From Candidatus Poribacteria bacterium (GTDB lineage: Bacteria; Poribacteria; WGA-4E; WGA-3G): a stretch of DNA of 64,000 nt. A model generated the notes under the pieces. That model was given only the letters and a program-made list of their open reading frames with translations, was not told where the DNA came from and ran no database searches. This document shows positions 9,539-59,458 of this stretch, piece after piece; position 1 is the stretch's first letter; each line of letters starts with the position of its first letter. The DNA is taken from the NCBI GenBank assembly GCA_026706025.1, contig JAPOZO010000052.1, positions 48,337 to 112,336 on the forward strand. The letters run 5' to 3'. The translations under genes were made by a program, and so were the position numbers.

Positions 9539-10078
9539 CAGGGTGTCAACTTGTGTTTTCTTTTCTATTAAGTCTTCCGAAAATAGCGGCGAATCACAAA
9601 GAGTTTTATTACGACATTTATATATTTTTATTTTATTGTGAAAAAATATGACCTAACATAACTGATGTTTAAACCCTGATGACTATTGACTTTATATCAA
9701 TTTAAAATTTGACAAAAAATGAGATTTTGATAATATATATTTATAACTTTTGTGAAAATATGAAGTTTGTGAACGTTTCACAACGGATATTTTCCAGCGC
9801 GAATTTGCCACAGAATTTTTTAGAACCTATTCGCATCTGGCATCTTATATTGAACTCACGCTATAATAGGACTTACGCAAAATCAGAGAATTATGCCTAT
9901 GGCGCCGCGGTAGGTGGGGTTAGGAATGCAAATCGCAAATGTAAAGCATTCTGACTGCGAAGCAAAATTTGGTCTCCGTGTGTAGAAAACCAAATGTGGG
10001 TGCGTACACCGCAAAACCGCACCTACCAGGGAATTGCGTAAGCCCTAACTTAATTACCGACTTAAGGGGGAAGAACTG

Positions 10079-11387: not shown

Positions 11388-11480
11388 TAGTTGTCAGTCG
11401 TCAGTTTTCAGTTTTCAGTTAAGCGGCAGATTGTTCCTGATAATCCCCTTAACTCTCACTGCGAGGCAAACTGACAACTC
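11388..11480. repeat. Family A heptad element copy 2
   Basis: GTCAGTCGTCAGTTTTCAGTTTTCAGTT ... CTTAACTCTCACTGCGAGGCAAACTGACAACTC. Confidence 0.8.
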
Positions 11481-11497: not shown

Positions 11498-13126
11498 TTG
11501 AAAATGCACGAAGAAGGAAAACAACCGCAACATATGAGGGAAAGGGAATATAGGAAATTATTCGGTTTAGAGATTTACTTAACGCCTGTATTCGTGATTT
11601 CCAGTATCGCTATTGTTGTCTTTATTATCGGGTCTCTTATTTTCCAAGAAGGTGCGACCAAACTCTTTGGGGGTCTTCGGGTTTGGCTCACCACGAACCT
11701 TGATTGGCTGTTCATGATCTCTACCAACCTTGTTTTTCTTTTCTGTCTGGTCGTGGCGTTTTCTCCACTCGGAAAAGTGCGTCTCGGAGGCACAGACGCA
11801 AAACCCGAATACTCTTACCTAACTTGGCTTGCTATGATCTTTGCAGCAGGCGTGGGCATTGGGCTCCTCTTCTTTGGCGTTTCGGAGCCGGTTACGTATT
11901 TTCAGGGTGGTAGTTATTCGCCGCTGGGGACAGAAACGGTTTATGACCCAGGGACGGAATACAATGCCGGAAATGTCCCCGATGCGGGGGATCCCAAGGT
12001 TCAAGCGGCGGCTTCCTTGGGTATAGCGACGACGGTTTTCCACTGGGGACTGCAAGGGTGGGCGATCTACGGTGTTGTTGGACTTGCCCTCGCATTTTTC
12101 GCCTATAACCGGGGTTTACCGCTCCTGATCCGATCTGCTTTTTATCCGATATTCGGTGACCGGATATGGGGGTGGCCTGGACACATCATTGACACGTTCG
12201 CTATATTCGCTGGTATCTTTGGACTAGCGACCTCGCTCGGTTTAGGGGTCCAGCAGGTGACCTCCGGTCTTAACCATCTGTTTGGAATACCAGTGGCCCC
12301 TGTCACCATGGTTCTCCTAATTGTCGTGATCACCTCCATCGCGCTGATCTCAGTGATGACAGGTATTAATGTCGGTATCAAACGTCTCAGTCAATTTAAT
12401 ATAATTCTCGCCTTTTTATTACTGGCGGCTATTATCCTTCTCGGGCCAACGCTCTACATTCTTCGGACGCTTTTTACCGGACTTGGCACCTATGTTATGA
12501 AGATTATTCCGCTCAGCAACTGGATTGGGCGTGAAGATACTGGATTCTTCCACGATTGGACGACGTTCTACTGGGCATGGTGGATCGCGTGGGCACCGTT
12601 CATCGGCACCTTCATTGCTCGGATTTCAAAGGGACGCACAGTTCGTGAGTTTGTCATCTTCGTTCTTCTGCTACCGACGCTGTTATGCTTAATCTGGTTT
12701 AGTGCTTTTGGTGGCACTGCTATCCACCAGTTCCTCGCTGAAGGTTACACGGGTGTAACCGAAAATGTTGAGACATATACTTACGAACTTGCCCTATTCA
12801 AAATGTTTGAAGGACTTCCGTGGACAACGCTGCTCTCCTGCGTCGCTATGACGTTAACAATCATTTTTTTCGTTACGTCGTCGGACTCCGGTTCTCTGAT
12901 TATTGACATCATCGCGGCGGGTGGCAAGGTTGACGCGCCGGTACCGCAACGTGTGTTCTGGTGTACTGTGGAAGGTTTAGTCGCTATCGCACTCTTACTT
13001 GGCGGAGGGCTGAAAGCATTACAAGCCGCTTCGCTCGCGACGGGCTTTCCGTTCGCGATTGTGATTTTAGGTATGGGTATCTGTGTCTGGATCGGGCTTA
13101 GTAAAGAGGCCCGTCAATCTGAATAG
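11498..13126 (+). CDS. BCCT-family (betaine/carnitine/choline) transporter
   Basis: 12-TM protein with the BCCT signature region WGLQGWAIYGVVGLALAFFAYNRGLPLLIRSAFYPIFGDRIWGWPGHIID. Confidence 0.85.
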   Translation: MKMHEEGKQPQHMREREYRKLFGLEIYLTPVFVISSIAIVVFIIGSLIFQEGATKLFGGLRVWLTTNLDWLFMISTNLVFLFCLVVAFSPLGKVRLGGTDAKPEYSYLTWLAMIFAAGVGIGLLFFGVSEPVTYFQGGSYSPLGTETVYDPGTEYNAGNVPDAGDPKVQAAASLGIATTVFHWGLQGWAIYGVVGLALAFFAYNRGLPLLIRSAFYPIFGDRIWGWPGHIIDTFAIFAGIFGLATSLGLGVQQVTSGLNHLFGIPVAPVTMVLLIVVITSIALISVMTGINVGIKRLSQFNIILAFLLLAAIILLGPTLYILRTLFTGLGTYVMKIIPLSNWIGREDTGFFHDWTTFYWAWWIAWAPFIGTFIARISKGRTVREFVIFVLLLPTLLCLIWFSAFGGTAIHQFLAEGYTGVTENVETYTYELALFKMFEGLPWTTLLSCVAMTLTIIFFVTSSDSGSLIIDIIAAGGKVDAPVPQRVFWCTVEGLVAIALLLGGGLKALQAASLATGFPFAIVILGMGICVWIGLSKEARQSE

Positions 13127-13245
13127 CAATCGGCTGTCAGCAATCGGCAGTCGGAAGAATAGTTGTCGGTTCTCGGCGCGCGGTTAAGAGGTTTGCTTGC
13201 GTCAAGCATCTCTTAACCAACCGTCGAAAGCCGAAAGCTGAAAGC
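13127..13245. repeat. Family A-related element copy 3 (GTCAG / CTGAAAG heptad variants around the GGTTAAGAGG...CTCTTAACC core)
   Basis: CAATCGGCTGTCAGCAATCGGCAGTCGG ... GTTAAGAGGTTTGCTTGCGTCAAGCATCTCTTAAC ... CGAAAGCCGAAAGCTGAAAGCC. Abuts the accA start, which has no SD. Confidence 0.65.
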
Positions 13246-13253
13246 CAATAAAT

Positions 13254-15395: not shown

Positions 15396-15430
15396 CTACT
15401 GACAACTGATGACTGAAAACTGACAACTCC
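15396..15430. repeat. Family A right-arm fragment (CTACTGACAACTGATGACTGAAAACTGACAACTCC)
   Basis: Five consecutive AACTGNC-type heptads. The left arm is absent. Confidence 0.6.
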
Positions 15431-15537
15431 TAAAACTTTTTCCCTTGCCAATTGTCAAATCTTTTGGTAAGATGATGCGAACGAAATTTTGAGAGTATTG
15501 TCTATCTAATTGATATGCACATCGGAGGAAACTCACA

Positions 15538-20687: not shown

Positions 20688-20790
20688 TAGTTATCAGTTG
20701 TCAGTTGTCGGTTGGTTATTCGGAACTATTAGTGAAAAGGTTTTACCTTATCCAACCACCTCTTAACCGACTACCGATCGCCATTTTGAA
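20688..20790. repeat. Family A heptad element copy 5
   Basis: TTAGTTATCAGTTGTCAGTTGTCGGTTGG ... GTGAAAAGGTTTTACC ... CCTCTTAACCGACTACCGATCG. Confidence 0.7.
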
Positions 20791-33096: not shown

Positions 33097-33254
33097 TTAT
33101 CGGTTGTCAGTTTTCAGAGGAATAGTTGTCAGTCATCAGACCGCTTCGCTTTCAGTTTTCAGTCAAGAGGGTCCGCGTAGCAGCTACAATGAACTGGACT
33201 GCCATAGGTGATTAACTGACGACTCTCACTGCGAGGCAAACTGAAAACTAACAA
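33095..33254. repeat. Family A heptad element copy 6 (largest; intercistronic glyA-folC)
   Basis: TAGTTATCGGTTGTCAGTTTTCAG ... TAGTTGTCAGTCATCAG ... TTTCAGTTTTCAGTCAAGAGG ... TTAACTGACGACTCTCACTGCGAGGCAAACTGAAAACTAACAACT. Runs to within 2 nt of the folC ATG, which has no SD. Confidence 0.85.
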
Positions 33255-33256
33255 CT

Positions 33257-34627: not shown

Positions 34628-34641
34628 CGAAAGATCGTAAG

Positions 34642-34775
34642 TCCGTAATGAAGCAGATCGCTTATGGGGTTTTTGCTTGGGGCTTCTTCAAGTACGCCGC
34701 AAAATGGAGGGCGGCTCTACGGAAAGGAACTCCAATGCTCAAACCCACTTTATTGAACCGCAAGGAAAATTAAAA
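34642..34775 (+). promoter_or_regulatory. Conserved leader motif (family C) upstream of hppA
   Basis: Blocks CCGTAATGAAGCAGATCGCTTATGGG / GTACGCCGCAAAATGGAGGGCGG / CAAACCCACTTTATTGAACCGCAAGGAAAATTAAAAA, near-identical to 42328-42442. Confidence 0.55.
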
Positions 34776-34795
34776 AAGAAAAAGAGAGGTTTTAA

Positions 34796-42327: not shown

Positions 42328-42442
42328 CCCGTAATGAAGCAGATCGCTTATGGGCGAGTACGCCGCAAAATGGAGGGCGGATAGAGGGAGAAGAACGTCA
42401 AAGGTCAAACCCACTTCAACGAACCGCAAGGAAAATTAAAAA
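42328..42442 (+). promoter_or_regulatory. Conserved leader motif (family C) upstream of the lactonase gene
   Basis: Same three blocks as 34642-34775, ending 1 nt before the ATG. Confidence 0.55.
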
Positions 42443-51107: not shown

Positions 51108-51223
51108 CTTGCCATAACAACTTTTGGGTGTCGTAGGGGTAGGCGCGAGCAGCGTTCAAACCTACCCTCTACTTCCCAAAGGACCTGCTATCTGTCGGAA
51201 TGGTCTACCAGATCAATTTTTCT

Positions 51224-51251
51224 TGACATCTCTCTTGAAATGTGTTATACT
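51224..51251 (+). promoter_or_regulatory. Sigma70-like promoter with extended -10 (TTGACA-16-TGtTATACT) driving the ilvB leader
   Basis: Consensus -35 at 51224-51229; TG-extended -10 at 51243-51251. Confidence 0.55.
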
Positions 51252-51339
51252 TAAAATACAAAAGATAATTCTTTTTAGCATACCCGTGAAACTTCATAAA
51301 ATGGTGTGCGTAATTAACATCTAAATAGTTACCCAAAAA

Positions 51340-51601
51340 GCGTTGAAGGGGAGGAGTAAGTCGCCCGGGCTTGCAAGAGATGGAGACTCATCGGCTGAAA
51401 GGTCTCCTCAAGTTACCACGACTGAAGGTCGCCCTGGAGCTGCTAATCTGAACACATATCAGTAGGATTAGTCGGTCCGATGCCCGTTATCGTATCCCAA
51501 AGAGTGCTCTTTCTCATAAGAGAAAGGGAATTGGAGTGGTACCACGGTAAGGTCAGTATTATGTCCTTCTCGTCTCCATGTTTGGAACGAGAAGGTTTTT
51601 T
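51340..51601 (+). promoter_or_regulatory. T-box riboswitch leader with intrinsic terminator, upstream of ilvB
   Basis: Stem I region with an AGAGA motif (51376-51380). T-box sequence AATTGGAGTGGTACCACGG (51529-51547) matches the consensus AATTAGGGTGGTACCGCGG at 15 of 19 positions. Terminator CCTTCTCGT...ACGAGAAGG + TTTTTT at 51565-51601, 55 nt before the ilvB ATG. Confidence 0.6.
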
Positions 51602-51654
51602 AATTTTAACGACTCCCGTAGGGACAATCCCTACTACTTATAAGGAAAATTGGC

Positions 51655-53331
51655 ATGGAACTTTCAGGAGCACAAATCCTGGTTGATGGTCTCAAGCGGG
51701 AAGGTGTCGAATATATCTTCGGTGTCAACGGTGGCGCAGCGATGCCGATTTTTGATGCCTTGTACGGCGAGACCGAAATCAAATTGATTCCGATGCGGCA
51801 TGAACAAGGGGCTTCCCACGCCGCTGATGGCTACGCACGCGCCACCGGGAAGGTCGGTGTTGCACTCGCAACCTCCGGTCCCGGCGCTACCAATCTCGTC
51901 ACCGGTATCGCTACTGCCTATATGGACTCCATTCCGATGGTCGCGATTACTGGTCAGGTTTTCACGCACTATATCGGCAGTGATGCTTTCCAAGAATGCG
52001 ATGTTATCGGCGTGACACGCCCGATCTGTAAGCACAGTTACCTCATTACAAGCAGTGACGAAATCGCAGATGTTGTCGCTGAAGCGTTTCACATCGCGAA
52101 AACAGGGAAACCGGGTCCTGTTATTATTGACATCGCCAAAGATGCGCAGATACATGAAGCCCTGTTTCAGTATCCAGAAACGGTTGACATCCGTAGCTAC
52201 AAACCTCAAGTTCATGGCGATCCGGTACAAATTGCCAAGGCGGCGGCACTGATAAAAGAAGCCAAACGCCCTATGCTTTATGCCGGCGGCGGTGTAGTCC
52301 TTGCGAATGCCAGCGAAGAACTACGGCAGCTGACCTTGAATACACAGATCCCGATTACCGTTACCTTGATGGGACTTGGCGCGTTCCCTGAGACGCATCC
52401 GTTAGCAATGGAGATGCCCGGCATGCACGGCTCCTGTTGCGCAAATTATGCCTTCACCGATTCAGACTTGGTTATCGCTATTGGTGCGAGATTTGACGAC
52501 CGCGTTACCGGGGATCTCAGTAAATTCGCACCTAACGCCAAGAAGATCCACATTGATATAGACGCGTCTTGTATTGGGAAAAACGTCCCTGTTGATGTCC
52601 CGATCGTTGGCGATGCGAAAAGCGTCCTGACGGAACTCAACAAACAGGTCGGTACAGCGGATATCGACCCGTGGCGCGCCCAGATTCAGGAGTGGAAGCA
52701 GAAATACCCATTTGAATACGATCAAAAATCGGATATAGTCATGCCGCAATTTGTTATTGAAAAAATATATGAGCATTACAGTGATGCCATCGTTGTTGCG
52801 GATGTCGGACAACACCAGATGTGGGCAGCGCAGTACTTCAAATTCACTGAACCTCGACAGTGGCTTAATTCTGGAGGGCTTGGCACGATGGGCTTTAGCC
52901 TACCCGCCGCAATCGGTGCGCAGCTCGGATGTCCAGACAAAACCGTCGTCAATATCAACGGGGACGGGTCCTATATCATGACGATCCAAGAACTGGTCCC
53001 AGCGGTTACCATGAAGCTGCCGCTTAAGGTCTTCATCATTAACAATATGTACCTCGGAATGGTACGCCAGTGGCAGGAATTGTTCCACGGCAAACGTTAT
53101 TCCGCTGTTGATTACCACGACAACCCTGATTTCGCCTTGCTCGCACAAGCGTTCGGTGCCACGGGCTTGCGGGTCGAACACCCTGAAGATGTCGAACCCG
53201 CATTACAGAAGGCAAAAGGGATTACCGACGGTCCTGTGGTCATTGACTTTATTGTTGATGAAGAAGAGAACGTGTTCCCGATGGTGCCAGCCGGTAAAGG
53301 GCTTGGAGATGTTATTCGCGGGTTATCTTAA
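51655..53331 (+). CDS. ilvB: Acetolactate synthase large subunit
   Basis: ThDP-enzyme blocks, including GDG(S/A)...NN region IINNMYLGMVRQWQ. Confidence 0.9.
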   Translation: MELSGAQILVDGLKREGVEYIFGVNGGAAMPIFDALYGETEIKLIPMRHEQGASHAADGYARATGKVGVALATSGPGATNLVTGIATAYMDSIPMVAITGQVFTHYIGSDAFQECDVIGVTRPICKHSYLITSSDEIADVVAEAFHIAKTGKPGPVIIDIAKDAQIHEALFQYPETVDIRSYKPQVHGDPVQIAKAAALIKEAKRPMLYAGGGVVLANASEELRQLTLNTQIPITVTLMGLGAFPETHPLAMEMPGMHGSCCANYAFTDSDLVIAIGARFDDRVTGDLSKFAPNAKKIHIDIDASCIGKNVPVDVPIVGDAKSVLTELNKQVGTADIDPWRAQIQEWKQKYPFEYDQKSDIVMPQFVIEKIYEHYSDAIVVADVGQHQMWAAQYFKFTEPRQWLNSGGLGTMGFSLPAAIGAQLGCPDKTVVNINGDGSYIMTIQELVPAVTMKLPLKVFIINNMYLGMVRQWQELFHGKRYSAVDYHDNPDFALLAQAFGATGLRVEHPEDVEPALQKAKGITDGPVVIDFIVDEEENVFPMVPAGKGLGDVIRGLS

Positions 53332-53340
53332 CGATTTTAA

Positions 53341-53500
53341 GGGTTGTCAGTTTTAAGAGTTATCAGTTTTCAGTTAAGACCCTGTGTCGAGAACATTTTC
53401 TGTCGCTGTCACAAGATACCTCTTTAACTGACGACTGATAACTATTCCCTCTGATAACTGACGACTGAAAGGGTTGCGTAGCAACCCGCACTGAAAACTA
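53341..53500. repeat. Family A heptad element copy 8 (intercistronic ilvB-ilvN)
   Basis: GGTTGTCAGTTTTAAGAGTTATCAGTTTTCAGTTAAGACC ... CTCTTTAACTGACGACTGATAACT ... CTGATAACTGACGACTGAAAG ... CACTGAAAACT. Ends 8 nt before the ilvN ATG. Confidence 0.85.
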
Positions 53501-53507
53501 TAAAAAA

Positions 53508-54008
53508 ATGAATTCAGAAGAACGACATATCTTTTCCGTTTTAGTCGAAAACCGATTCGGAGTCCTTGCACGCGTTGCGGGGCTCTTTAGCGGGCGCGGC
53601 TTTAATATCGACAGTCTCAACGTCGCTGAGACACATGACAAAAGCATCTCGCATATAACTCTTGTCACACACGGTGACGCGCAAATTATGGAACAGATCT
53701 ACCAGCATCTAAACAGACTCATCGACGTTATTGAGGTGACCGACCTTTCCGCTGCTGGAACGCATGTTGAGCGAGAACTTGTTCTTATTAAAATTGCTAC
53801 CGATGATCCTCAAAAACGCACCGAGATTCTACAAGTCGCGGAGGTTTTTCGTGGGCGGGTCATAGATATGAAGCCTGCCTCCCTTGTGCTTGAAATTACC
53901 GGTGATGAAGGTAAATTGAAAGCGGCAATTGATATTTTCAATACGTACGGTATCCTTGAGCTGACACGCACCGGCAAAATAGCGATGTTACGCGGCTCCG
54001 AGAAATAG
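53508..54008 (+). CDS. ilvN: Acetolactate synthase small (regulatory) subunit
   Basis: ACT-domain N-terminus LVENRFGVLARVAGLFSGRGFNIDSL typical of IlvH/IlvN. Confidence 0.85.
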   Translation: MNSEERHIFSVLVENRFGVLARVAGLFSGRGFNIDSLNVAETHDKSISHITLVTHGDAQIMEQIYQHLNRLIDVIEVTDLSAAGTHVERELVLIKIATDDPQKRTEILQVAEVFRGRVIDMKPASLVLEITGDEGKLKAAIDIFNTYGILELTRTGKIAMLRGSEK

Positions 54009-54011
54009 GAT

Positions 54012-54140
54012 ATGGTTGTCGGTACGTTCCGCTGCGCTCCACTTTCAGCTATAGGTTATCAGTTGAATGTGTGGCGGGTGAAAAGGTTTAACCTGCTACA
54101 AACGAGTTACTGACAACTGGCAACTGACAACTGATAACTT
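54012..54140. repeat. Family A heptad element copy 9 (intercistronic ilvN-ilvC)
   Basis: GGTTGTCGGT ... CAGCTATAGGTTATCAGTTG ... GTGAAAAGGTTTAACC ... GTTACTGACAACTGGCAACTGACAACTGATAACTT. Confidence 0.8.
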
Positions 54141-54157
54141 AAAAAGGAATAGACTTT

Positions 54158-55150
54158 ATGGCAACGATTTATTACGATAGTGATGCTAATTTTGACTTAC
54201 TGAAAGAGCGTACCGTCGCTGTTGTTGGCTATGGTGCGCAAGGACGTGCACAGTCGCTAAATCTCAAAGACAGCGGTGCAAACGTGATCGTCGCATTATA
54301 CGAAGGCAGCCGTTCAAAAGCCCGTGCAGAAGCGGAAGGTCTGACTGTCAAGAACGTTGAAGAAGCCGCAGCAATGGCAGACATCGTCCAAGTTCTCATA
54401 CCTGACGAACGCCACGCCGCTGTCTATCGCGACCAGATTGCCCCTAACATGGAAGCAGGCAATATGCTCCTCGTCTCACACGGGTTTAGCGTCCACTTTG
54501 GGCAGATTGTACCTGCCAGCGACATTGATGTCGCAATGATTGCGCCTAAGGGCCCCGGTTCCCTCGTTCGTGAAGTGTTTGAAGGCGGTGGTGGTGTGCC
54601 GTGCCTTATCGCCATCCATCAAGACACCACAGGTCTCGCGCGCGATGTCGCACTCGCTTATGCAAGAGGTATCGGCGGCACACGTGCTGGGGTCATTGAA
54701 ACGACGTTCCGCGAGGAGACCGAAACCGATCTCTTCGGTGAGCAAGCCGTGTTGTGTGGCGGAACCGCTGCCCTCATCAAAGCCGCCTTTGATACACTCG
54801 TTGAAGCCGGTTATCAACCGGAAATGGCTTATTTTGAATGCCTCCACGAGTTGAAATTGATTGTTGACCTGATCTATACGGGTGGGTTGAGCAAGATGCG
54901 GAACGATGTCAGCAACACCGCCGAATACGGTGATCTAACACGCGGTCCTCAACTCATTGACGATAGTGTCCGGGACAAGATGCGCCAAATCTTGAAAGAC
55001 GTTCAAGGCGGTGTCTTTGCACGTGAATGGGTTTTGGAAAATGAGGCGAACCAACCCGTGTTAGGCGCGCTCCGCCGACAAGAGGCGGAACTTGAGATCG
55101 AAGAAGTCGGAAAAAATCTCCGTAGCATGATGAGTTGGCTTGATGAATAG
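54158..55150 (+). CDS. ilvC: Ketol-acid reductoisomerase
   Basis: [21 protein letters not shown] Rossmann motif and the KARI C-terminal knotted domain. Confidence 0.95.
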
Positions 55151-55238
55151 CCGCTCCTTTCGGTAATTGTGGTAGGTGCGGTTTTGCGGTGTACCATAGG
55201 TGTCAATTTAGTAGATTTTCAGTGGTTTTCTCTTGAAG

Positions 55239-55490
55239 TCCCGTAGGTTGGGTTGAACGGCGTTGAGAAGTGGACTGTTGACAGGTCAAACACCCCTGAA
55301 AGTCAATATCCGACCACATCTATTCGTGAACGTAGTGAAACCCAACTTTACGCTGTCAGCCCCGCGGAACCTTCAAATCAAAAGCGTTGGGTTTCACTCG
55401 GTCTCTGATGGGTGTGGTGTATCTGGAACAAGTTGTGTTTTCTATGATTTTCGGGTTTTTAGTGGCATCCGTTCAACCCAACCTACGGGA
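55239..55490. mobile_element. MITE-like 252-bp element with 22-bp perfect terminal inverted repeats and a nested 13-bp inverted repeat
   Basis: Terminal inverted repeats TCCCGTAGGTTGGGTTGAACGG (55239-55260) and CCGTTCAACCCAACCTACGGGA (55469-55490). Inner repeats AGTGAAACCCAAC (55334-55346) and GTTGGGTTTCACT (55386-55398). No transposase gene and no clear target-site duplication. Confidence 0.5.
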
Positions 55491-55520
55491 CGATACTTGG
55501 GTATTTCTGCGGATTTCTTC

Positions 55521-59116: not shown

Positions 59117-59240
59117 AGGTTATAAGTTTTCAGTTTCCAGTCTTCGGTCTTCAGTTACAAACGGTTACCCGTAAATGAACACGCTCTTAACTGATAAATC
59201 TCACTGCGATGCAAACTGATGACTGATAACTTCTCTAACT
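59117..59240. repeat. Family A heptad element copy 10
   Basis: GGTTATAAGTTTTCAGTTTCCAGTCTTCGGTCTTCAGTTAC ... CTCTTAACTGATAAATCTCACTGCGATGCAAACTGATGACTGATAACTTCTCTAACTGAA. Confidence 0.8.
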
Positions 59241-59458
59241 GAATGCCCAGAGCCATTCAATTCTCCATTTTCCGAGCGAATCTTCACCGCCAGGCCCGGT
59301 AGGTGCGGTTTCCGAACCGCACCGGATCTTGGAAAAAAGACGTGAAACCCCATAATTTCTTAAAATTGAATGGCTCTGCTGAATGCCTAATATATTATAC
59401 CATTTTAGTTGAGTTTGTGGTAGAATGAAATCAGAATTTTGATAAGAGGCAACTAACA

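Follow-up and report, generated by a model that had tools for sequence, protein, structure and literature searches.

TAACTGA-type palindromic repeats, probably selfish or near-neutral, in the ilvBNC operon spacers of sponge-symbiont Candidatus Poribacteria

The window analyzed here is a 64-kb stretch of contig JAPOZO010000052.1 from the sponge-symbiont Candidatus Poribacteria, in which the genes ilvB, ilvN, and ilvC are separated by two long spacers. Each of these spacers contains a single TAACTGA-type dispersed palindromic repeat (family A) that is clade-specific and non-coding; with a probability of about 0.6, it is selfish or near-neutral DNA tolerated in operon spacers. A sequence-only reading of the window had described the three genes as collinear and each gap as nearly filled by one element; coordinates and Pfam matches confirmed the former on the + strand, and the anatomy of the spacers confirmed the latter. 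The ilvB-ilvN gap was 176 nucleotides (nt) long (53332-53507), and the ilvN-ilvC gap was 149 nt long (54009-54157). The IlvN protein of the window was identical, residue for residue, to a copy on a sponge-metagenome scaffold in ENA. The features of the operon and its spacers were as follows.

51223-51251, + strand: sigma-70-type promoter upstream of the ilv leader (promoter scan), TTGACA, 17-nt spacer, and TATACT, with TG
51334-51580, + strand: T-box leader RF00230 controlling ilvBNC (Rfam, 113.7 bits against a gathering score of 93)
51655-53331, + strand: ilvB, acetolactate synthase large subunit (Pfam)
53343-53376, + strand: ilvB-ilvN element, left arm, reverse-type heptads GTTGTCA GTTTTAA (GA) GTTATCA GTTTTCA GTTA
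53373-53432, + strand: ilvB-ilvN element, core, inner palindrome GTTAAGACC ... CCTCTTTAAC enclosing a variable loop
53426-53470, + strand: ilvB-ilvN element, right arm, forward heptads AACTGAC GACTGAT AACT / ATTCCCT / CTGATAACTGACGACTGAAA
53471-53487, + strand: small GC hairpin GGGTTGC-GTA-GCAACCC nested among the forward heptads
53490-53507, + strand: last forward heptad remnant ACTGAAAACTAT (53490-53501) and A-run adjoining the ilvN ATG, no Shine-Dalgarno (SD) sequence
53508-54008, + strand: ilvN, acetolactate synthase small subunit (Pfam)
54014-54065, + strand: ilvN-ilvC element, left arm, GGTTGTCGG, 20-nt insert TACGTTCCGCTGCGCTCCAC (54023-54042), then TTTCAGCTATAGGTTATCAGTTG
54066-54105, + strand: ilvN-ilvC element, core
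54106-54140, + strand: ilvN-ilvC element, right arm, forward heptads ACTGACA ACTGGCA ACTGACA ACTGATA ACTT
54144-54148, + strand: SD-like AAGGA, 9 nt before the ilvC ATG, kept in species with and without the element
54158-55150, + strand: ilvC, ketol-acid reductoisomerase (Pfam)

Both ilv elements followed one ground plan, (NTCAGTT)n, a short palindromic core, and (NAACTGA)n, and the core common to the family contained a conserved inner palindrome, CAGTTA(C)AAGAGG - loop - CCTCTT(G)TAACTGA. The ilvB-ilvN copy was composite, with a main hairpin (53343-53470), the nested 17-nt GC hairpin, and the terminal heptad remnant with its A-run at the ATG. Its right heptad arms lay precisely at 53426-53443 and 53451-53470, all three + frames of this arm were closed by stop codons, and the heptad core stopped at 53499, 8 nt ahead of the ilvN ATG. 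In the ilvN-ilvC copy, the left-arm heptads (54014-54022 and 54043-54065) were split by the 20-nt insert, and the 3′ part of the core, CTGCTACAAACGAGTTACTGA, was common to orthologous elements of several species, including L002-L004, L006, L024, L032, and L080 (L-numbers denote compared loci, and W denotes the window). The arms of the ilv elements were 75–77% complementary, about what two heptad arrays with a common 5-nt core would give.

Nine family members were found in the window, and seven of them filled gaps between co-directional genes. Besides the two ilv elements, the copies were as follows.

682-831, + strand: family copy occupying the gap upstream of SBP56, with an SD sequence after the right arm (fold z = -6.4)
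11389-11480, + strand: family copy ahead of BCCT, containing the nested insert CTCACTGCGAGGCA (11455-11468)
13125-13246, + strand: variant copy between BCCT and accA, arms GCAATCG / GCAGTCG and GAAAGCC / GAAAGCT, core GGTTAAGAGG..CTCTTAACC (fold z = -5.3)
15398-15428, + strand: forward array on its own, with a promoter-like site downstream at 15445
20689-20782, + strand: family copy before the gamma-glutamyltranspeptidase (GGT) gene
33097-33256, + strand: family copy filling the glyA-folC gap up to the folC ATG, with a nested insert at 33225-33238
59118-59242, + strand: family copy in a divergent gap, with a 36-nt core that L010 carries inverted in its orthologous element

Whole elements measured 90–160 nt, with inverted arms of 14–35 nt and outer ends (A/G)GTT...AACT, and the arrays contained two to six units. 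The in-phase pattern ACYGANNACYGA occurred 24 times in the window vs. 0.45 expected, and exact TAACTGA occurred 22 times vs. 7.8 expected. Across the Poribacteria set (1.5 Mb, 86% coding), the commonest in-phase unit was TAACTGA (57, and 9 in the window), followed by CAACTGA (39), TAACCGA (28), AAACTGA (27), and CAACCGA (26). By the crude longest-ORF (open reading frame) gene calls used in the censuses, each of the 43 arrays of three or more in-phase units was intergenic, and paired arms ran reverse-then-forward in 24 cases and in the opposite order in none. The reverse arm adjoined the upstream stop codon in every element, and the right arms of the seven gap-filling copies finished 0–23 nt before the start. 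Lone forward arrays were also found before promoters and in convergent gaps.

The heptamer arms are of the NRACTGA type with TAACTGA as the modal unit, and they represent the Poribacteria form of the published TAACTGA-type intergenic repeats (MacGregor, 2015; PMC4679880), which the sequence-only reading had not recognized. That heptamer was reported from Beggiatoaceae, some Cyanobacteria, a few Bacteroidetes, and Thiocystis. The Beggiatoaceae genome BOGUAY had 169 direct-repeat sets and one inverted set, of which 132 of 170 faced a start without a ribosome-binding site (RBS), often 1 nt away, and some lay inside ribosomal-protein operons. The downstream gene lacked an RBS in about 90%, related heptamers were rare, and the forward frames were closed by stops; a translational role was proposed, with no mechanism given (MacGregor, 2015). 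A Nostoc preprint described other heptamers near starts, with unclear effects.

A comparison across species covered 80 Candidatus Poribacteria genomes (IlvN identity 85–99%), the nearest to the window by IlvN after a search of 185,579 species genomes. The ilvB, ilvN, and ilvC genes were found in 80 of 80 loci, the spacers were then cut out, and the tree was based on a gapless concatenation of ilvB and ilvC. Spacer lengths ranged from 14 to 1681 nt for ilvB-ilvN and from 4 to 7014 nt for ilvN-ilvC. Only a subset had the heptad element in the ilv spacers. These all belonged to a sub-clade whose IlvB shares about 94% identity or more with that of the window, and the distribution of the element on the tree was patchy. 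Many close relatives with 92–99% identical enzymes lacked the element or carried a replacement. L004, at a distance of 0.054 the nearest relative for which both gaps were scored, had an unrelated repeat family between ilvB and ilvN, and the ilvN-ilvC gap measured 4–19 nt in nine species. At least six species (W, L002, L003, L004, L006, and L080) kept an orthologous ilvN-ilvC element, and five more had related copies with diverged cores; many of the compared copies are orthologous and are thus not independent. The element was missing from both spacers in many close relatives, and therefore it is not needed for operon polarity or for translation of ilvN and ilvC, which counts against the earlier suggestion that it serves these ends. 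On these alleles, the element is dispensable at the ilv sites.

The alleles without an element also indicated how it may be lost. Compared with the window, the empty ilvB-ilvN allele of L041 (45 nt) lacked only the 131 nt that lie between the two occurrences of AAGGGTTG, an 8-bp repeat, and the empty allele of L034 retained one left heptad. The end points of the empty alleles varied (AAGGGTTG, a GGTCGTCA remnant, or CGA at the L014 joint), and these alleles looked like microhomology deletions and not precise excisions. Between ilvN and ilvC, the gap of L010 was 19 nt (GATAT/AAAGGAATAGACTT), and the window had 130 nt more at the slash with no duplication. Heptad copy number varied between orthologous ilvN-ilvC elements, and the two arms changed independently.

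Other rearrangements affected the core and the arms. A direct core search for orthologues of the element at 59118-59242 showed that its 36-nt core, TTACAAGAGGTTATCCGTAAATGAACACGCTCTTAA, in L010 (18827-18891) was the exact reverse complement of that in L004 (14480-14567); W, L007, and L008 carried the L004 orientation with a few substitutions. This is an in-place inversion between the heptad arms. It could be taken to mean that the core is an invertible switch that flips between the inverted arms and alters expression of the flanking genes. That idea is highly improbable, given that the inversion is a single case seen between species rather than within a population, that no recombinase gene lay nearby, and that the cores contained no promoter-like site. 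Small inserts were also nested in the arms. The tiny dispersed insert CTCACTGCGANGCA, in degenerate form CTCACTGCGA(G/T)GCA, had five copies in the window vs. 0.08 expected; it lay in the right arms at 11455-11468, 33225-33238, and 59200-59213, and also at 9951 and 31589 with one mismatch. In other Poribacteria, it occurred in both orientations and also inside a different repeat family. Small hairpins were found at one fixed spot in the forward heptads, ACTGAA-AG[stem]GNA[stem']G-, as at 53471-53487 of the window and in L002, L003, L010, L012, L014, L016, L018, L027, and L034. The stems differed by species (GGGTTGC-GTA-GCAACCC, GCCTGC-GCA-GCAGGC, and GGTTTTTC-GGA-GAAAAACC), and they represent either one hairpin whose two halves covary or a group of related, very small inserts that are palindromic. 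The element is thus structurally unstable, through heptad-number slippage, microhomology deletion, nested inserts, and core inversion.

Transcription signals were located ahead of ilvB. The promoter scan detected no promoter-like site in any of the seven gap-filling elements, and the terminator scan of both ilv spacers detected no terminator-like site, i.e., no GC-rich stem with a U-tract. At the gathering cut-off, Rfam matched the T-box alone in the window, and the region 53300-54200 gave no match at E-values up to 1; a tRNA scan found none. Because neither spacer contained a promoter-like or terminator-like site, co-transcription is the best reading, and ilvBNC with both elements would lie on one T-box-controlled mRNA. 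The earlier proposal of co-transcription across the elements was supported in this way, with the promoter and T-box before ilvB and no promoter-like or terminator-like site in the spacers; the suggestion of partial termination was not, given the lack of a GC-stem-plus-U-tract terminator there. A terminator-like hairpin with a U-run at about 51560-51605 belonged to the T-box leader. In more distant Poribacteria (L055, L059, L070, L061, L044, L045, L065-L068, and L072-L078), 1.1–7 kb of extra DNA, genes included, separated ilvN and ilvC, and the ilvBNC arrangement is therefore not conserved phylum-wide.

Three candidate signals within the elements were rejected. The sequence CTGACA-N17-GATAAC in the right arm failed the criteria of the promoter scan. 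A mini-ORF running from an SD-like AAGAGG in the core to the right arm fitted the ilvB-ilvN copy and, read by eye, did not fit the copies at 682 or 11389. Small ORFs next to the arrays, once clustered, were only spurious translations of the reverse arrays (LSVVSCQ...).

The elements can form long predicted hairpins (z = -5.5 and -2.4). Whole-gap RNA folds beat shuffled sequences in four of the seven copies (z = -6.4, -5.3, -5.0, and -3.3) and did not clearly do so in three. The long-range helix opened 33 nt past the stop codon at BCCT-accA and 2–12 nt past it in the other six of the seven gaps, and it closed 0–41 nt before the start. The sense strand folded more stably than the antisense strand in 5 of 18 (Wilcoxon p = 0.36), a weak test given that the copies are partly orthologous. 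No evidence for selection on RNA pairing was seen in sense/antisense folding and arm complementarity.

These folds bear on the role that the sequence-only reading had favored, a functional hairpin resembling repetitive extragenic palindromic (REP) sequences or bacterial interspersed mosaic elements (BIMEs) that stabilizes the mRNA, marks a site where it is processed, or terminates it in part, and that determines the ilvB:ilvN:ilvC ratio. In placement and mosaic build, the elements do resemble REP, BIME, and miniature inverted-repeat transposable elements (MITEs). A function of this kind would suit the intercistronic site in a T-box-controlled operon, the stable predicted hairpins, the retention of the orthologous ilvN-ilvC element in at least six species, and a stem beginning a few nucleotides past the upstream stop, as a 3′ exonuclease barrier would. 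However, terminator-like features were lacking, the sense strand folded no better than the antisense, the arms were just 75–77% complementary and changed copy number independently, many close relatives lacked or had replaced the element, and the same family occurred in the divergent promoter region at 59118-59242. We therefore regard this function as unlikely at the ilv sites.

Beyond the Poribacteria, a metagenome scan with one pattern, ACTGAYAACTGAYAACT, returned at least 120 loci. Among the matches listed, GC contents varied from 33 to 67%, a Roseiflexaceae contig was included, and inverted pairs were common, being reverse-first in 22 cases and opposite in none (p = 5e-7); 48 of the 74 lone arrays listed faced a start and 26 faced a stop, which was a weaker bias than that in BOGUAY. 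Two loci, L086 (2176-2556) and L189 (296-649), one of them from a Roseiflexaceae bacterium, had an ORF of about 120 amino acids belonging to PF05635 between the arms, and both genes were flanked by the same ACTGA heptads. PF05635 is the 23S-rRNA-intervening-sequence/Avd-like four-helix-bundle family (Pfam name). As a control for selection bias, 10 PF05635 homologues were chosen by just their protein similarity and the length of their contigs, without regard to repeats (within L202-L218). Period-7 arrays bracketed the gene in 10 of 10 of these independently sampled loci from other phyla, and in 12 of 12 with L086 and L189. Period-7 identity was 0.61–1.0 in the upstream flanks and 0.32–0.54 inside the genes; downstream it was 0.68–1.0 for nine loci, the array of L206 beginning past the scored region on that side. 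Most upstream arrays were of the form (NTCAGCN)n, and most downstream ones of the form (NNGCTGA)n. All 10 sampled loci lay in short spacers, nine of them between co-directional genes, and the sites included gatA-gatB, dprA-topA, methylmalonyl-CoA mutase/B12 subunit, and FtsX/ABC partner. In most sampled cassettes, the stop codon of the ORF lay within the forward array, and the array ended a few nucleotides before the next ATG, usually with no SD sequence. The heptads GCAATCG/GCAGTCG and AAGCTGA were common to the BCCT-accA copy and some PF05635 cassettes. A literature search returned nothing linking PF05635 with heptamer arrays and nothing on Poribacteria repeats.

By likeness of build, the architecture of family A appears to be that of an ORF-less PF05635 cassette in which a short palindrome replaces the ORF. 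We tentatively speculate that a widespread class of cassettes with inverted NRACTGA/NNGCTGA ends exists, not described in the literature searched, in which gene-bearing members encode PF05635 and family A represents members without a gene. If this were true, the relation of PF05635 to the heptads would parallel that of RAYT to REP, and a single phenomenon would unite TAACTGA repeats, the hairpin elements of Poribacteria, and rRNA intervening sequences that bear an ORF. The arms would pair into a processable stem, which would let the unit live within transcripts, in operon spacers or rRNA, and the forward arm would give stops in every frame and an SD-independent restart site for the next gene.

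The same survey is pertinent to whether the arrays are local simple-sequence repeats that arose by polymerase slippage, with no mobility and no common origin. Copy number does differ between orthologues, many different heptads occur in other genomes, and in many bacteria no long simple repeats are more common than those with a heptanucleotide unit (Mrazek, 2007, as reported in a paper citing it). Such an origin is nonetheless very unlikely, since the inner palindrome GTTAAGAGG..CCTCTTAAC and the arm order are common to unlinked copies, the reverse-then-forward order held 22 to 0 in unrelated organisms among the matches listed, and the arrays were tied to one gene family, PF05635, in 10 of 10 loci.

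The start codons behind the elements were examined for a 4-nt SD core at -18 to -4. This core was absent at ilvN, folC (33257), and accA (13254), and it was present at SBP56, BCCT, GGT, and ilvC. Since the proportion without it (3/7) was close to that of the window genes overall (27 of 55, with SD in 28 of 55), SD-less starts were not enriched behind elements. The sequence-only reading had taken SD-less starts as a rule. That rule failed with ilvC, which has AAGGA, and with the four of seven genes behind elements that have an SD sequence, although its account of ilvN, with the element 8 nt before an SD-less ATG, was correct. At folC the element does abut an SD-less ATG, but at a distance of 0 nt and not 2 nt; between BCCT and accA the element is present and accA has no SD sequence, but the heptads are of the variant type. 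All 'type-1' ilvN alleles ended in AC[TC]GAAAACTATAAAAA-ATG whether or not the hairpin element was present, and other ilvN alleles had unrelated A-rich leaders. The SD-less, A-rich ilvN start was also seen in alleles without the hairpin element and in alleles with unrelated repeat families, and it is therefore not a product of the element.

These starts are central to MacGregor's hypothesis of a translation element, in which the start-proximal forward heptads would be bound by S1, a Csp-like, or another RNA-binding protein and would replace or modulate the SD sequence; the reverse arm might in addition mask the forward heptads until the upstream ribosome opens the stem. In its favor, the forward arms pointed toward the downstream start in seven of seven gap-filling copies; ilvN, folC, and accA had heptads and no SD sequence; and the ACYGAAAACTATAAAAA-ATG remnant was kept in all type-1 ilvN alleles, even with the rest of the element deleted. 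The arrangement is like that in BOGUAY and behind PF05635 cassettes, and the stop-stem-start geometry suits structure-mediated coupling. However, four of seven genes behind elements had a normal SD sequence downstream of the arm with no SD-less enrichment, other ilvN alleles had unrelated leaders, lone forward arrays also occurred before promoters and in convergent gaps, and only 48 of 74 lone arrays among the matches listed in the broad metagenome sample faced a start. We consider it improbable that translation explains the elements. The elements may nevertheless affect how the mRNA is processed, how stable it is, or how translation starts without an SD sequence, but ilvBNC does not require any such role.

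A second repeat family of about 150 nt, ending in GAACCGCAAGGAAAATTAAAAA, was observed at 34755-34772 and 42421-42438 of the window and in many ilv spacers of L004-L066. It directly abutted the ilvN or ilvC ATG in many species, thereby supplying AAGGA and an A-rich initiation region, and it was at times tandemly duplicated (L007, L008, L015, L047, and L051).

We propose that the ilv elements are selfish or near-neutral DNA that would survive only where harm is small. Forward arms with stop codons in all three frames would keep the element out of genes, where it therefore could not sit. The element would import no transcription signals, and its paired arms may hold the upstream stop and the downstream start region close together in the folded RNA while the gene-proximal initiation region stays intact. 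Any effect on the operon would be secondary and modest, most likely cleavage of the long double-stranded stem by an RNase III-type enzyme, or else an exonuclease barrier.

Several observations weigh against this proposal. No transposase or other mobilizing gene turned up in the window and 1.5 Mb of fragments, where no systematic transposase search was made. There was no consistent target-site duplication, with an 8-bp repeat at ilvB-ilvN (vs. L041) and none at ilvN-ilvC (vs. L010). Because of these two points, mobility is inferred only from the dispersal of the common core. The elements lay nearly always in short co-directional gaps with their forward arms toward starts, which could mean function and not tolerance, and the forward heptad remnant beside the ilvN ATG of all type-1 alleles leaves room for a translation role. 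A search for PF05635 genes (tblastn and family hidden Markov model, E-values up to 10) found none, either in the window or across the 1.5 Mb of Poribacteria sequence. Finally, co-transcription, processing, and neutrality are all deduced from sequence.

Two further kinds of repeat were observed in these genomes. An insert of about 24 nt, GGTGTTTTTGCTTGGGYGTTTCTKC, lay in both orientations within different repeat elements of L029, L066, L062, L008, L007, L038, L016, and L040 and at 34628-34795 of the window, and it was locally amplified in L007. REP-like GC-rich hairpin repeats, e.g., GGTAGGTGCGGTTT..CCGCACCTACC and CCCGTAGG.., occurred at operon ends, and they filled the ilvB-ilvN spacer in L006, L017, L028, L053, and L058. 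Their positions in the window were as follows.

51134-51175, 51613-51635, 55180-55200, 55240-55270, 55480-55500, and 59300-59320: REP-like GC-rich hairpin repeats

The TAACTGA repeats described in 2015 came with no mechanism and from few uncultivable lineages, and they are now found in a phylum of sponge symbionts. The 80-species comparison showed dispensable elements with fast turnover at fixed operon sites, in which SD absence is not a hallmark, and the strict arm-order rule extended to unrelated bacteria. For annotation, it cautions against reading the long operon spacers of these genomes, which are inserted repeats, as regulatory regions. The PF05635 link would join two old puzzles, the nature of heptamer arrays and the role of the very abundant four-helix-bundle/23S intervening-sequence proteins, both of which can now be tested with existing genomes and simple binding and processing assays.

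Several known systems resemble these elements in part. Cyanobacterial heptamer arrays (short tandemly repeated repetitive sequences, STRR) are reportedly intergenic and host nested inserts of 14–27 nt. The tiny nested inserts here, CTCACTGCGANGCA and GTTTTTGCTTGGGYGTTTCT, are similar, whereas the phylum and the sequences are different; to our knowledge, an inverted-pair build with a conserved inner palindrome has not been described for STRR. Intervening sequences of 23S rRNA are excised by RNase III, and those bearing PF05635 are likewise inserts bounded by inverted repeats that fold into a long stem within a transcript, but the window copies contain no ORF and lie in mRNA spacers instead of rRNA. 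Correia elements of Neisseria, a kind of MITE, are transcribed together with their neighbors and cleaved by RNase III; they form hairpins of 100–160 nt with terminal inverted repeats. From end to end, their copies are almost the same; they show a duplicated TA target, lie in intergenic regions including operons, and show presence/absence polymorphism between strains. The Poribacteria elements share the hairpin size, the intergenic and operon sites, and the presence/absence variation, and they differ in their variable cores and in the lack of a consistent target duplication. With MITEs in general they have terminal inverted repeats and small size in common, whereas their cores differ between copies beyond the inner palindrome and no autonomous partner was found.

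In REPIN-RAYT systems (REP doublets and the REP-associated tyrosine transposase), a rare gene that is always flanked by repeats marks the partner, as PF05635 does for the heptad arrays. However, no RAYT or IS200-like gene turned up here, where no systematic transposase search was made, and PF05635 is a small four-helix bundle without known catalytic activity. Like REP and BIME sequences, the elements are extragenic, palindromic, mosaic, present in many copies, and often within an operon, with transcription in Poribacteria inferred; their arms are tandem heptad arrays, unlike the 20–40 nt palindromic unit in alternating orientation. The closest likeness in sequence is to the repeats of MacGregor (2015), with the TAACTGA unit in at least two tandem copies, intergenic and within operons, stops in the forward reading, and forward arms that can end 0–8 nt from a downstream start, some downstream genes having no RBS. 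The likeness in orientation is partial, since every element also has a reverse arm beside the upstream stop and some lone forward arrays lie before promoters or in convergent gaps. The Poribacteria arrays differ in forming inverted pairs around a palindromic core, where BOGUAY has one inverted set in 170, and in their degenerate units (CAACTGA, TAACCGA, CGACTGA, and others), related heptamers being rare in BOGUAY. The rule of an RBS-less downstream gene did not hold in the window, with three of seven such genes and SD sequences behind the other four. Poribacteria also lie outside the published range, and the metagenome matches suggest a still wider one. Given MacGregor's prior description of TAACTGA repeats, the novelty lies in phylum and architecture and not in kind: these elements are a new inverted-pair architecture, in a new phylum, of an already published repeat type.

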